In this document: piece by piece, positions 45,068 through 53,736 of the stretch
Layout: each line of letters starts with the position of its first letter
Numbering within the stretch: the first letter of the stretch is position 1
Source: an uncultured Bifidobacteriaceae bacterium
GTDB lineage: Bacteria; Bacteroidota; Bacteroidia; Cytophagales; UBA9547
Length of the DNA: 64,000 nt
Direction: 5' to 3'
Assembly (NCBI GenBank): GCA_964572965.1
Contig: CAZNHL010000009.1
Coordinates: 4,836 to 68,835, forward strand
The notes under the pieces: model-generated
Database searches by the model: none
The model's input: only the letters and a program-made list of their open reading frames with translations
What the model was told of the DNA's origin: nothing
Translations under genes and position numbers: made by a program

Positions 45068-46183
45068 CTAAACCCTAACTAATCTCATTAATGGCTCAAA
45101 TGAATACAAAGCAGGTCTTCTTCCTGAAGCAGCTTCCTTTTGTTTCAGATAACCATTTTCTATAAGTTTTTTTACCACCGCAGCAGCTGTTGCAACCGGA
45201 ATTTTAGTGTTACTGATAAATCTGTTATTTCTGAAAACAGGGTTAGTAAATACAAAGTCCAAAACACCCACACTCCATTTTGATGAAAGCAATTCAGAAA
45301 ATTCAACTTTCATTTCTTCATACAAGCTCCTGATATTTTCAGCAATCTGCAGGTTTTGAACTGCCTGCTTTTCTACAGCAATAAGGAAAAAACGTATCCA
45401 TGCATTCCAATCATTGGTTCTTGAAACATCTCTCATAGCCTCAATGTATGCATCTTTATTTTCTTCAAAATAGCCGCTAATATAGAAGTGTGGTTGCGAT
45501 AATACACCCGATTTCCAAAGTAATAATGTGATAAGCATTCTTCCTATTCTTCCGTTGCCATCCTGAAAAGGGTGCAAAGCTTCAAATTCAAGATGCGCTA
45601 CTGCCGTGCGTATAATAGGTGGTTCACTACTACCTTCCATATAAGCAAAAAGTTTGTCAAGGCCATCGGGCAGCTGTTCAGCACTGATTGGTACAAACTG
45701 GATTTTTTTTGCAGAGCGGTCGGCAAGATAATTTTGCTCTTTTTTAAACTCCCCGGGCGACTTTGTTGCTCCACGTCCAAAATACAATAATTGCTGGTGC
45801 ATTTGTTTAATAAAACTCTGAGAGAAAGGATAACCATCATTCAAAGCCGACTGTGCACTTTTCAACGCTCTTTGATATAAAACCGTCTCTACTACATCAC
45901 TTCTTGTTCCTTGTGGTTCAGTCCCGTCATCGTCAGCTTCGTACTCCAGTATTTCATCCATAGTACTGATTGTACCTTCTATTCTGGAAGATAAAACCGC
46001 TTCCCTGTTTCTAAGTGGGGCTAGCAAAATTTCGCTGTTATGCAGGTTTTTGAGCATCTGGTCAAAACGTGCCAATGCATCAGTAGCACTCAGCAGTTCT
46101 TGTATAAAAAACTCATACCGAATACCTATAGGCGGAAATTTATCGTAATGATAATGTACAGCCTCATCCAAATTGAAGTTCAT
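45068..46183 (-). CDS. Fic family protein 2 (Fic/DOC N-terminal domain, class II, C-terminal wHTH)
   Basis: EAVLSSRIEG, HLEFEALHPFQDGNGRIGR, LYISGYFE-like segment and C-terminal HTH (VATAAAVVKKLIENGYL). Confidence 0.95.
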   Translation of the reverse strand: MNFNLDEAVHYHYDKFPPIGIRYEFFIQELLSATDALARFDQMLKNLHNSEILLAPLRNREAVLSSRIEGTISTMDEILEYEADDDGTEPQGTRSDVVETVLYQRALKSAQSALNDGYPFSQSFIKQMHQQLLYFGRGATKSPGEFKKEQNYLADRSAKKIQFVPISAEQLPDGLDKLFAYMEGSSEPPIIRTAVAHLEFEALHPFQDGNGRIGRMLITLLLWKSGVLSQPHFYISGYFEENKDAYIEAMRDVSRTNDWNAWIRFFLIAVEKQAVQNLQIAENIRSLYEEMKVEFSELLSSKWSVGVLDFVFTNPVFRNNRFISNTKIPVATAAAVVKKLIENGYLKQKEAASGRRPALYSFEPLMRLVRV

Positions 46184-46190
46184 ATACTAG

Positions 46191-46406
46191 TTTGTCTACA
46201 ATAAAATGCATTTTCTATCATACAAGATAGCTTATCGACGGAAATTATCAAATAACAATACACAAAAGGTTTTGTCTACAAAAAACAACACACAAAACGG
46301 TTTGCCTACAAAAAAAGGCAAAAAACAGATGACAAAATGATTTGTCTACATAAAACAGCACCCAGGAAGCTTTGCCTACAAAAAATGAACAAAAACGGAT
46401 GACAAA
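46191..46406. repeat. Phased TTTGYCTACA direct-repeat array with a 70-bp tandem duplication, upstream of Fic-2
   Basis: 10-mers at 46191, 46271, 46301, 46341 and 46371 (spacings 80, 30, 40, 30); 46261-46330 and 46331-46400 are diverged duplicates. Confidence 0.85.
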
Positions 46407-46454
46407 CAATATTTTGGTTGTTATCTCTTATATTTAAGTTTAAATGACAATCAC

Positions 46455-51254: not shown

Positions 51255-51467
51255 TTACTTCAACTTATTAGGATTCAATAACTCCCTTATATCCACATTT
51301 AAGACCTCTGCAATCTGAAGTAAAGTCTCCAATGATGGTTGAGAGTCATTGGTACACCAACGAGAAATTGTAGCAGTATTCTTTCCTAGCTTAGTTGCCA
51401 GCCACTTGTTTGTTCTTTCCTGTTCGGCCAGTACAACCTTTATTCTATTTATCGATGTCTTTGACAT
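51255..51467 (-). CDS. XRE-family HTH transcriptional regulator
   Basis: NRIKVVLAEQ.RTNKWLA.KLGK..ATISRWCTN.SQPSLETL..IA..L.V is the typical Bacteroidota Cro/XRE pattern. Start ATG 51467. Confidence 0.9.
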   Translation of the reverse strand: MSKTSINRIKVVLAEQERTNKWLATKLGKNTATISRWCTNDSQPSLETLLQIAEVLNVDIRELLNPNKLK

Positions 51468-51472
51468 AAAAA

Positions 51473-51703
51473 TCACTTTTCATTCTCAAAAAACCTACCT
51501 GTTGAAATTCCCAACCCTTCTGCCAAAAGCATAATAGTATTCAAGCTGGTATTGATTACCCCTGTTTCTATCCTCGCTATCTGACTAAGTGATATTCCCG
51601 TCCTGTGTGCTAACTCTTCCTGAGTAACACCTAGGGATTTACGGCATACTGCAAACTGTTTGCCGAATGCCTTTATCTTCTCTTTATTGACTGTTTTTCT
51701 CAC
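51473..51703 (-). CDS. XRE-family HTH transcriptional regulator
   Basis: FG......RK.LG.TQEELA.RTGIS.SQIARIE.G..N.SL.TI..LA..L; GTG start. Confidence 0.85.
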   Translation of the reverse strand: MRKTVNKEKIKAFGKQFAVCRKSLGVTQEELAHRTGISLSQIARIETGVINTSLNTIMLLAEGLGISTGRFFENEK

Positions 51704-51734
51704 AGGTCAAAGGTTAATAAAAAGTATCTATTCC

Positions 51735-51872
51735 TTAAACTTCAAACCTAAAAAGCAAATCAGGTTCTATGCCCATTCCTTTGCTTAGTGCATAAATAGT
51801 TGAAATTGTTGGGCTTCGTTCTCCTCTTTCCAGTCTGCTGATTTGTTTGGCATCTAATACTGTTACCTTCAA
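51735..51872 (-). pseudogene. 5'-truncated XRE HTH fragment, not in the ORF track
   Basis: Translates to LKVTVLDAKQISRLERGERSPTISTIYALSKGMGIEPDLLFRFEV*, the C-terminal half of an XRE domain. An in-frame TAG lies 9 codons upstream of this fragment. Confidence 0.7.
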
Positions 51873-51976
51873 ATACTTTGATAACCTGAAAGTAATCTAT
51901 TTCTCAAATACTACCAACTGGTAGTGGTCAAAGTGTTTCAGCTATAATATCTTTCCTCCATAGAAATTATTATACT

Positions 51977-52365
51977 ATGGAAAAACACAAACCAGCTATC
52001 AGCATTATGCTGGTGGAGCGTGACGAACTGGCCTTGCAGGTATTAGTATGGCTTTTTGAGAAAAGCGGCTATCTCGGCGAGCTGCTGTTGTTTACAGATC
52101 CGGACAAAGCTGCGGAATACCTCAACACACATAAGCTGCCTGACCTGATTATCGCTGACTTTTCCTGAACAAAATGGAGGAATTTAGCTTTCTGCTGCGG
52201 GCACAGGAACTCGCTGCTTCGTGGAACAAGCCAATGGCTATTGTTATTCTGGGAGATTTCGCTGGTGATATACGGGAAGTATCTACTGTAATTGCTGATA
52301 TCCATTTTGTGCTAAAACCGCTTACGCTTGATGTGGCTGAGAGGTGGATTGGGTTGCTACAGTAA
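51977..52365 (+). pseudogene. Stand-alone receiver (CheY-like) domain split by a 1-nt frameshift
   Basis: ORF 51977-52168 ends ...PDLIIADFS*. Adding one T to the T4 run at 52160-52163 gives DLIIADFFLNKMEEF... in frame with ORF 52174-52365, which ends FVLKPLT (conserved Lys-Pro). Confidence 0.75.
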
Positions 52366-52390
52366 GCGGCTTGCAAATCCTATGATCTGG

Positions 52391-52443
52391 CTTCGAGATT
52401 ATAAATCCCGAAGAGCAATTTTGCAGCAGCAGCTGCAAAATTG
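52391..52443. terminator. Two adjacent hairpins between the convergent receiver pseudogene and Fic-3
   Basis: CTTCGAGATT-ATA-AATCCCGAAG and the perfect CAATTTTGCAGC-AGCA-GCTGCAAAATTG. Confidence 0.62.
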
Positions 52444-52503
52444 AACTAGACTAGAGTTGTGTTACAAACATGTATCTCGTCAGTCCTCAAACTAGTTTGG
52501 TTT

Positions 52504-53577
52504 CTATCTTTTAGACAACAATTCAAACAAGCGTGTATTGATATAATAGTTTCCGGTTCCTAGTTTGGCTTTTTGCAAAAGGCCGTCTTCTGCCAGTTTG
52601 TTCAAATAGGAAGCTGCTGTTATTCTGGAAACTCCCAGATCATTCATCAGGAATTCTATTTTTGTATAAGGGTGTTTGAATAAATTATTCAACAAATCCT
52701 GGCTGTAAAACTTATAGTTTTCCCGTAACTCATACTTATAGGTTTGCATCAGTTTTTTTATCTGGCCGATAAGCTCAATCGTTTCTTTAGAAGTTTCTTC
52801 TATGCCTTTGATCATAAAGAGTAGCCATTCTTCCCAATTTTTCTTATCACGCACTTCTTGAAGCAGTCTGTAATAATCTGCTTTGTGTTTGATAATATAG
52901 CTACTCAAATAGAGGATCGGTAAGTTTTGCAGGTTTTCGAGGATAAGATAGAGAATATTCACAATCCGGCCAGTTCTGCCGTTTCCGTCATAAAATGGAT
53001 GAATACTTTCAAACTGATAATGGATAACAGCCATTTTAACGAGTGCGTCATATTCACTGAATTCCTTGTTATTGATAAAGGACTCCAGGTTGGCCATCAG
53101 ACTATCGATCTCATCATAACTTTGAGGAGGTGTATAAACAACTTCACCGGTTTGTGCATTTTTCAGGTTTGTGCCGGGCAGTTTTCTGAAGCCTGCTTTG
53201 TTTCGTTCCAATTCTTCCTGAATAATGAGAATGGTTTTATTGGTAATCAGCCCGCTTGCCGATGTCAGTTCAAAACCCTTCTTTAAGGCTGATATATAAT
53301 TCTGCACTTCTTTAGCATTTAATGAATTGAGTGCTTCAAAATTCAACTCTGACTTATACAGATCGTCATGTGTCGTAATGATATTTTCAATAGCTGAACT
53401 GTCTTTTGCTTCCTGTAAACCAAGGGTATTGATAAGAATATGCTGGTTCGGAATTGTAGAGGCTACTCCCTTCAATTCTGCCAAAGCAGCATGCGCAGCT
53501 GGCAGGCTCTTTAAAACCTTGATAGTCTCGAGATCATGCTTTACAGGTAACGGTTCTAATTTCCAGTTTGTCTCCAT
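52504..53577 (-). CDS. Fic family protein 3 (class II, C-terminal wHTH)
   Basis: QEAKDSSAIENI, HYQFESIHPFYDGNGRTGR and wHTH (LGVSRITAASYLNKLAEDGLL). True start ATG 53577 (METNW); the ORF-track extension reads through the repeat array. Confidence 0.95.
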   Translation of the reverse strand: METNWKLEPLPVKHDLETIKVLKSLPAAHAALAELKGVASTIPNQHILINTLGLQEAKDSSAIENIITTHDDLYKSELNFEALNSLNAKEVQNYISALKKGFELTSASGLITNKTILIIQEELERNKAGFRKLPGTNLKNAQTGEVVYTPPQSYDEIDSLMANLESFINNKEFSEYDALVKMAVIHYQFESIHPFYDGNGRTGRIVNILYLILENLQNLPILYLSSYIIKHKADYYRLLQEVRDKKNWEEWLLFMIKGIEETSKETIELIGQIKKLMQTYKYELRENYKFYSQDLLNNLFKHPYTKIEFLMNDLGVSRITAASYLNKLAEDGLLQKAKLGTGNYYINTRLFELLSKR

Positions 53578-53582
53578 AGTAC

Positions 53583-53736
53583 TATGTAAAGATTTTGCTG
53601 TTTTCTTTACATAGCAAAACCTATATGTAAAGAAAATCAATTTTTCTTTACATATGCAAAGTGTTATGTAAAGATTTTGCCGTTTTCTTTACATAGCAAA
53701 CCTCATATGTAAAGAAAAGTTAAAAATCTTTACAGA
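53583..53736. repeat. Four palindromic units TATGTAAAGA-N11-TCTTTACATA at an exact 41-bp period
   Basis: Left arms at 53583, 53624, 53665 and 53706; units 1+2 and 3+4 form an 82-bp duplication. The last right arm is TCTTTACAGA. Confidence 0.95.

Follow-up and report, generated by a model that had tools for sequence, protein, structure and literature searches.

Four phased palindromes as a probable self-operator array of a SoFic-family Fic gene

Immediately ahead of the start codon of a gene for a Fic protein, here termed Fic-3, four palindromes follow one another at strictly regular distances. Which protein would recognise such an array, and what would its occupancy do to the adjacent gene? 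We pursued this question in a window of 64,000 nucleotides, the whole stretch of DNA that was analysed, which stems from a 4.45-Mb genome belonging to the Bacteroidota, as it encodes SusD-like proteins.

The array and the protein encoded beside it

A motif search found four units of the form TATGTAAAGA-N11-TCTTTACATA at positions 53583-53736, with 1 mismatch in 80 arm bases. Exact TATGTAAAGA half-sites lie at 53583 (+), 53604 (-), 53624 (+), 53645 (-), 53665 (+), 53686 (-) and 53706 (+), while the eighth half-site at 53727 (-) carries the single mismatch and reads TCTGTAAAGA; the orientation of the half-sites hence alternates along the array. Each unit measures 31 bp (10-N11-10), the linkers have 10 bp and the start-to-start distance is exactly 41 bp. 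The only long open reading frame abutting the array is that of Fic-3 on the minus strand, the ATG of which occupies positions 53577-53575. Between this codon and the nearest arm lie 5 bp, and the array spans -6 to -159 relative to the ATG. The original prediction had described four palindromes with an exact 41-bp period before the Fic-3 start codon, and both the sequence and the motif search agree with this description.

The units, given here without strand, differ mainly in their spacers. Unit 1, nearest to the Fic-3 ATG (53583..53613), reads TATGTAAAGA-ttttgctgttt-TCTTTACATA and unit 2 (53624..53654) reads TATGTAAAGA-aaatcaatttt-TCTTTACATA. Unit 3 (53665..53695), TATGTAAAGA-ttttgccgttt-TCTTTACATA, is a duplicate of unit 1 with one different spacer base, and the most distal unit 4 (53706..53736), TATGTAAAGA-aaagttaaaaa-TCTTTACAGA, contains the one arm mismatch. 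Tandem Repeats Finder reported periods of 41 and 82 bp, the latter with 87% matches, and a tandem duplication of 82 bp has probably turned an array of two units into the present one of four. A comparison of the two 82-bp copies revealed 1 difference in 40 arm positions as opposed to 11 in 32 positions outside the arms (Fisher p = 3.5e-4), which bears out the earlier claim that the arms are conserved while the spacers drift. The claim of two alternating spacer types survives in part: the A-type spacers differ in 1 of 11 bases, but there is little resemblance between AAATCAATTTT and AAAGTTAAAAA, the B-type spacers. Of the 18 exact half-sites in the 4.45-Mb genome, 7 fall into the 154-bp array, where 0.0004 are expected, and the full palindrome occurs at this locus only; relaxed criteria retrieved from the rest of the genome just 20 isolated matches with 3-4 mismatches each. 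The array is thus far beyond chance and statistically robust.

The Fic-3 gene (52504..53577, minus strand) codes for 357 amino acids with Fic_N, Fic and SoFic-like_C domains. These domains, together with its motifs, identify Fic-3 as a class II Fic AMP-transferase of the SoFic family that carries a winged helix at its C-terminus. A catalytic motif of the HPFx[D/E]GN[G/K]R type is present as HPFYDGNGRTGR (Pfam Fic, E = 1.6e-16), and the class II inhibitory motif (S/T)xxxE(G/N) appears as SSAIEN in the Fic_N domain (E = 2.8e-28), aligned with the region of the same motif (S-[RE]-IEN) in SoFic and EcSofic. The C-terminal segment (52507..52752, minus strand) matches PF21248 over residues 276-350 (E = 1e-19) and HTH_36 over residues 302-334; the predicted recognition helix SRITAASYLNKL, residues 317-328, is encoded by the codons at 52594..52629 on the minus strand. 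Over nearly its entire length, Fic-3 is matched by the PADLOC SoFic model (residues 7-355, E = 2.7e-117) and by the sequences of the SoFic and EcSofic crystal structures (residues 8-356, E about 1e-79).

The surroundings of Fic-3 are a defence island: within 10 kb, we found two more SoFic-like genes, an AAA_14/DUF4143 gene, a Schlafen/HATPase gene and two XRE-type HTH genes (51255-51703, 0.8-1.2 kb away), and the other neighbouring genes encode proteins of unknown function. Among the window neighbours checked, no integrase, transposase, recombinase or replication/Rep gene adjoins the array. The array motif is absent upstream of the other Fic paralogues of this genome; the Fic-2 paralogue has its own, different repeat, and no obvious repeat was found upstream of the C44 Fic paralogue.

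Palindromes and Fic genes in other genomes

If the palindromes belong to the Fic gene, they should accompany it elsewhere, and we examined this relation from both sides. Starting from the gene, a metagenome scan with the Fic-3 protein yielded 80 homologues of 73-81% identity, which were picked blind to the DNA motif. Among the 77 homologues with at least 200 bp of upstream sequence, 76 carry one to three units of the pattern TATGTAAAGA-N10-12-TCTTTACATA upstream, compared to a background of 1 unit per 235 kb in the rest of the metagenomic loci, while none of 68 homologues has a unit within 250 bp past the stop codon. Successive units start 41 bp apart in 51 cases and 42 bp apart in 12, and the ATG directly follows the last arm in 47 of the metagenomic loci. 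Both the 41-bp register and the direct contact of the array with the start codon recur in the metagenomic homologues and are hence properties of the family. In two sets of intervals between units from other genomes, 48 of 58 and 49 of 52 linkers measure 10 bp; since linker and 41-bp period are kept there, they do not simply result from the 82-bp duplication at this locus. This retention over about 110 inter-unit intervals also lends indirect support to the original idea of an oligomeric, phased binder. Relatives have 1 to 5 units per locus, and the four units found here are at the upper end of this range, which is explained by the 82-bp duplication.

Starting from the motif, the exact palindrome was scanned against one genome per species from approximately 185,000 species. 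The 103 matching stretches are mostly from Bacteroidota (Algoriphagus, Hymenobacter, Mucilaginibacter, Saprospiraceae and Bacteroidales), with few in Campylobacterota, Peribacteria and others. A composition-based estimate attributes about 2-25 of the 103 to chance, a range into which the Firmicutes and archaeal matches without a Fic gene fit. A Fic homologue starts beside the palindrome at 46 loci and ends beside it at 13; at 17 loci the palindrome lies near the edge of the fetched block (at least 2 of them are really 5' cases), at 26 loci no Fic gene is in view, and the remaining stretch holds no scorable palindrome. When genera are compared across the 46 loci, they have no gene family in common but Fic, and no conserved partner such as an antitoxin, another HTH gene or a recombinase was found beside the arrays beyond synteny within Algoriphagus. 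About 25 sites that are not attributed to chance have no Fic gene inside the visible 8 kb. Of 30 genomes with such orphan sites, 21 are without a close Fic-3 homologue and only 2 have one elsewhere. Two orphan sites in Algoriphagus have a fragment of a Fic C-terminus right beside the palindrome and are hence deletion relics; the remaining orphan sites may be relics, too.

The arms of the SoFic clades were found to track the predicted recognition helix. In the Fic-3 clade, the helix SR[IVLP]TA..YL goes with arms TATGTAAAGA. Helix SRQTASKYL is accompanied by CGTGTTAAGA or CATGTTAACA (loci L008 and L011), TRLTAAKYL by CATGTATAAA (L013), RKTASN by CGTGTAC[AC]AA (L014) and ENTAR.YL by AAACATTAAA at six loci, one of which, L027, has five units with a 71-bp period. 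The N11 geometry is kept in every one of these clades. Judged from the sequences compared, the consensus half-site of the family is YRTGTWNARA, to which an A-tract is attached. This A-tract comes after the left arm in about 80% of 81 N11 units taken from other genomes, and it would suit a wing contacting the minor groove.

Promoter and predicted mode of binding

Promoters of Bacteroidota are composed of a -7 box TAnnTTTG and a -33 box TTG, and we take the TAnnTTTG and the upstream TTG in the arrays of the relatives to be these two boxes. In the Fic-3 clade, TTTG opens the proximal unit at 46 of 46 non-redundant loci compared to 4 of 45 distal units. The exact TAnnTTTG, formed by the end of the linker and the start of the proximal unit, is present at 30 of these 46 loci, and at 36 of 46 a TTG is located 18-21 nt upstream, within the spacer of the second unit. 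With boxes in the proximal unit and in the second spacer, the core promoter of the relatives is built into units 2 and 1. Transcription of their genes is predicted to start inside unit 1 and to yield a short, A-rich leader consisting of spacer and right arm.

The window itself deviates from this layout, as all four units open with TATG, unlike the proximal TTTG of the relatives. A scan for -33 and -7 boxes gave only the -7-like boxes TAGGTTTT and GAGGTTTG, each with one mismatch and both in linkers. The linker between units 1 and 2 (53614..53623, minus strand), which reads TAGGTTTTGC on the Fic strand and is one mismatch away from TAnnTTTG, is a candidate -7 element of the Fic-3 promoter. Unit 2 has the spacer aaaaTTGattt on the Fic strand, the TTG of which (53640-53638) takes the position of the relatives' -33 box. 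On the same strand, the linker between units 2 and 3 (53655..53664, minus strand) reads ACACTTTGCA, and that between units 3 and 4 (53696..53705, minus strand) reads TGAGGTTTGC and includes GAGGTTTG, also one mismatch from TAnnTTTG; the latter may be a promoter element duplicated together with the 82-bp segment. Since canonical boxes are out of the family position here, the transcription start of Fic-3 is uncertain. A scan of the array for sigma-70 promoters and terminators returned nothing, as expected for Bacteroidota.

Is there a precedent for a Fic enzyme that occupies its own promoter? CccR of Yersinia pseudotuberculosis, a Fic enzyme that carries a C-terminal HTH, forms a dimer with DNA-binding helices about 70 Å apart, produces a footprint on AGATAATCAT-N26-ATGATAATCT in its own promoter and represses this promoter, and mutation of the palindrome or of the dimer interface abolishes binding and repression (PMC9755527). 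It shares with Fic-3 the membership in the class II Fic proteins, the C-terminal HTH and, upstream of its gene, an inverted repeat whose arms measure 10 bp. However, the single palindrome of CccR has a 26-bp spacer, whereas the four units of Fic-3 follow in tandem, with spacers of 11 bp and fixed linkers of 10 bp; CccR is an effector that is secreted by a T6SS and targets FtsZ, whereas Fic-3 belongs to the SoFic defence family. Binding to the own promoter is experimental for CccR, while for Fic-3 the binding, repression and cooperativity at the array are inferred.

SoFic of Shewanella oneidensis is closer. It is a full-length homologue of Fic-3 (E about 3e-79; PDB 3EQX, 9TC4) with the same three-domain layout. 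DNA of its own promoter co-elutes with the dimer but not with the monomeric L31D mutant, and AMPylation of EF-Tu by SoFic also needs the dimer (10.64898/2026.07.09.737422). Binding was mapped to 100-bp fragments only, of which F1 was bound best, and no operator was defined (10.64898/2026.07.09.737422). The sequence of F1 has half-sites of the CATGTCGAT type instead of an N11 pair. In the 300-bp promoter fragment (Table S2 in 10.64898/2026.07.09.737422), we found CGTGTATAGA-N11-TCTATACACG, a 10-bp linker and TTTGTATAGA-N11-TCTATACATG, that is, the same 10-N11-10, 41-bp design as in the Fic-3 array. This N11 pair, which the authors did not point out, is situated about 190-260 bp upstream, and the F3/F2 boundary cuts its second unit. 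The SoFic helix KRQTASVYL goes with arms CGTGTATAGA, whereas the Fic-3 helix SRITAASYL goes with TATGTAAAGA.

The best match of Fic-3 among solved structures is EcSofic (9VJC, E = 2.4e-79), likewise a dimeric Fic toxin from a defence island. Its toxicity needs the dimer and contact between C-terminal and catalytic domain, and a 47-aa antitoxin, AS1, is encoded downstream; the EcSofic-AS1 paper does not address DNA binding (PMC12249575). No equivalent of AS1 was identified downstream of Fic-3 (51704-52503), where we found only unassigned small open reading frames and a response-regulator fragment. Operators with several adjacent palindromes and cooperative occupancy are familiar from Phd/Doc and other type II toxin-antitoxin systems, in which the Fido-fold toxin helps to repress the operon. 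In Phd/Doc, the DNA-binding module is a separate antitoxin and the toxin acts as co-repressor, whereas the Fic-3 toxin carries its own winged helix and the arrays have up to 4-5 strictly phased units.

Taken together, we suggest, with a probability of roughly 0.8, that the four palindromes are the operator region of the adjacent Fic-3 gene. Operators for the adjacent Fic protein had already been proposed in the original prediction, and the proposal is now backed by the SoFic-family winged helix, the upstream palindromes of the homologues, the covariation of arms and helix and the precedents of CccR and SoFic. Fic-3 would form a homodimer via its N-terminal helix, and each C-terminal winged helix would read one 10-bp half-site. 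Half-site centres that are 21 bp apart would be separated by about 71 Å or two helical turns, so that no DNA bending would be needed, and this distance fits the approximately 70 Å between the DNA-binding helices of the CccR dimer (PMC9755527). Up to four dimers would assemble in the 41-bp register with fixed 10-bp linkers, probably in a cooperative manner. With 10.5 bp per helical turn, each dimer would be turned by about -34 degrees relative to the preceding one, and the earlier statement that all eight half-sites lie on one face of the helix is accordingly an approximation. Bound dimers would occupy promoter and transcription start as well as the short leader that extends to the ATG. By doing so, Fic-3 would repress its own synthesis and keep its level low until a disturbance occurs, e.g. 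phage infection; that repression of fic-3 is the net effect of array occupancy appears probable, if somewhat less so than the operator function itself.

Arrays behind the gene and alternative explanations

A different arrangement is seen in sister clades. At the 13 loci in which the gene ends beside the palindrome, a Fic gene with the helix SRPTA[TS] ends within or beside the first arm. At L008, two and a half units begin 3 bp past the stop codon and are followed by an intrinsic terminator, with none upstream; units are located downstream of the Fic gene at L012, L016 and L017, and at both ends of it at L014. Arrays directly past a stop codon cannot be simple promoter operators. No second Fic gene was found behind the 3' arrays, the downstream genes are mutually unrelated, and no conserved small open reading frame after these arrays is evident. 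The 3' arrays thus bear on the question whether DNA binding does more than repress transcription.

Could the array then act on the enzyme, instead of or besides transcription? It might be a platform for docking or sequestration, at which cognate sites capture newly made Fic dimers and hold the winged helix in a state that modulates AMPylation, until release, for instance on phage infection, switches the toxin on or off. The matching arrays at either end of Fic genes, including the 3' UTR of L008 before its terminator, speak for such a role and suggest that proximity to the gene outweighs overlap with the promoter. Furthermore, the linker length is strictly conserved, dimerisation is needed for DNA binding as well as for AMPylation or toxicity (10.64898/2026.07.09.737422; PMC12249575), and the toxicity of EcSofic depends critically on an interaction of its C-terminal domain with the AMPylase domain, while ATP binding moves the C-terminal domain (PMC12249575). 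On the other hand, arrays of the Fic-3 clade are always upstream (0 of 68 downstream) and contain promoter boxes, for which plain autorepression suffices. In addition, 1-5 dimer sites per chromosome would sequester very little protein, and CccR's regulatory activity and its toxic one are reported to be independent (PMC9755527). We therefore regard this role, which takes up the more speculative idea of the original prediction that DNA-templated oligomerisation controls Fic activity, as unlikely, and the same holds for its extended form, in which phased 5' or 3' arrays would nucleate a multi-dimer Fic assembly that gates the enzyme, with autorepression as one output. If this were true, occupancy of the winged helix by DNA would set whether the dimer AMPylates EF-Tu, and the array would be a DNA 'antitoxin' or sensor whose disturbance by phages triggers abortive infection.

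It is also conceivable that the palindromes act as RNA hairpins in the leader of the Fic mRNA, or in the 3' UTR elsewhere, and control translation or stability or give rise to small RNAs. The minus-strand transcript of the array folds at -52.8 kcal/mol (z = -8.4), a hairpin of unit 1, which ends 5 nt ahead of the AUG, would occlude initiation, and the units of L008 are transcribed, as they are placed between stop codon and intrinsic terminator. Any palindrome folds, however, and the z-score is hence uninformative. In the 81 N11 units of other genomes, departures from the consensus affect a single arm in 65 cases, compared to 8 that preserve pairing, and lack compensation, and the arm sequence itself is conserved across phyla beyond its pairing. 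As the -7 box of the relatives extends into the left arm of their proximal unit, only the right arm is part of the predicted mRNA, and the 10-bp linker and the 21-bp phasing of half-sites are properties of a DNA helix. The evidence thus favours recognition of double-stranded DNA by a protein, and a function as RNA hairpin seems very improbable to us. In Rfam, the array obtained only three matches to miRNA models, with 25-26 bits against gathering scores of 57-100; as all of them stay below these scores, a known RNA family was dismissed.

The array could finally belong to something other than Fic-3: it might be bound by an XRE-type HTH protein or a host regulator, serve as a site of recombination or of a mobile element, or consist of repeat relics unrelated to Fic-3. 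The two XRE genes at 51255-51703 could in principle provide a binder, orphan arrays without a Fic gene do exist, and arrays abut coding ends on either side in a cassette-like manner. Extended arms around a short asymmetric core (13-5-13) presumably also resemble, if loosely, the core sites of tyrosine recombinases. Nevertheless, no gene but Fic is common to the loci, the arms track the Fic recognition helix, an integrase, transposase or replication gene is missing beside the array here, and tandem sites at 41 bp are not a known layout for recombination. Iterons and recombinase core sites were likewise discarded as candidates, as there is no adjacent Rep or recombinase gene and none of the neighbouring genes is conserved across the loci. 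REP and BIME elements share with the array the tandem, imperfect palindromes of about 30 bp, the short linkers and the intergenic position, but they are dispersed in tens to hundreds of copies and not tied to one gene family, whereas the Fic motif is confined to a single locus per genome and tied to Fic genes. A dispersed repeat of the REP, BIME or MITE kind was rejected, since the 4.45-Mb genome has the palindrome at one locus only. We consider this last group of explanations barely conceivable.

Operation as a self-operator thus is the reading we prefer, and the array belongs to a kind already described, the self-operators of Fic-HTH proteins. New here are the defined operator model, the layout with the promoter inside the array, the pairings of helix and half-site and the 3' variant. 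SoFic is a widespread single-gene anti-phage system, for which experiments so far located binding somewhere in its promoter. The model proposed here would specify the operator at the level of nucleotides, with the half-site YRTGTWNARA, the geometry 10-N11-10, 10-bp linkers, 1-5 units and embedded promoter boxes, and it re-reads the published SoFic promoter fragment. It further provides a natural series of pairs of recognition helix and half-site, with which short oligonucleotides could be used to test binding, cooperativity and autoregulation in this family of defence proteins.

Palindromes at the SoFic promoter and at the 3' ends of Fic genes

The promoter of SoFic, the Fic homologue of Shewanella oneidensis, is printed as a 300-bp fragment in Table S2 of bioRxiv 10.64898/2026.07.09.737422. 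In this fragment, we found two 10-N11-10 units with CGTGTATAGA / TTTGTATAGA arms and a 10-bp linker, located upstream of the ATG at a distance of approximately 190-260 bp. The F3/F2 boundary used in the same study cuts through the second unit. Fragment F1 contains CATGTCGAT-type half-sites with short spacers.

In other SoFic clades, 10-N11-10 arrays with a 41-bp period were observed directly 3' of the Fic stop codon (L008 (G012:C2), L012, L014, L016 and L017; further L033, L037, L048, L065, L067, L082, L096, L109, L117 and L128). At L082, L096 and L128, the stop codon TAA of the Fic gene is the TAA within the ATGTAA of the arm. At L008, an intrinsic terminator follows the array, and at L014 and L109 units flank the Fic gene at both ends. 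At L139 (G102:C50) and L137 (G092:C13), SoFic-like genes with 3' arrays are insertions within groups of type I restriction-modification genes (hsdM, hsdS), and internal stop codons are present in several of these Fic genes.

Variant geometries and orphan palindromes

A short palindrome variant with a 1-nt spacer, TATGTAAAGC-n-GCTTTACATA, occurs at L060, L074, L075, L078, L083, L087, L089, L098, L127, L129 and L130, most of which are Algoriphagus loci, and also at L039 and L110. It forms the distal end of the array where the array adjoins a Fic gene and is shorter than the normal unit by exactly one helical turn. A different period is found at L027 (G004:C25), where five AAACATTAAA-N11-TTTAATGTTA units with an exact 71-bp period are located upstream of a distant SoFic-like gene (37% identity; recognition helix ENTARKYL).

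Two Algoriphagus loci harbour orphan palindromes (L061, 5988-6098; L083, 2247-2336) flanked by a gene for an amidohydrolase on one side and a gene for a LytTR membrane protein on the other, a syntenic slot which in sister species is occupied by Fic and its array. Since a fragment of the Fic C-terminus is retained beside the palindrome, the gene remnants point to the orphans being deletion relics.

Surroundings of Fic-3 and differences between arrays

Downstream of Fic-3 (52504-53577, minus strand), a truncated response-regulator receiver fragment (51977-52168, plus strand) lies within the 0.8-kb gap, and two adjacent XRE-family HTH genes of 73 and 76 aa follow at 51255-51703 (minus strand). 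An antitoxin resembling AS1, the 47-aa protein described downstream of EcSofic, was not recognised in this downstream region.

At L033 (= L140; 1274-1520), an array of six units, each with internal symmetry, is located 3' of the Fic gene and is followed by a type IIG restriction-modification-like gene. Its arms shift stepwise from CATGTCGAAA via CGTGTCGAAA, CGTGTTAAGA and TATGTAAAGA to TATGTATAAA, the latter in two units. This looks like either a record of operator diversification or a set of sites for several paralogues.

The second SoFic-like gene of the window, Fic-2 (45068-46183, minus strand), has an upstream region (46191-46425) filled by a repeat array unlike that of Fic-3, with TTTGTAG(G/A)CAAA-type motifs, one per approximately 30-40 bp. 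Each Fic paralogue seems to have a private motif.
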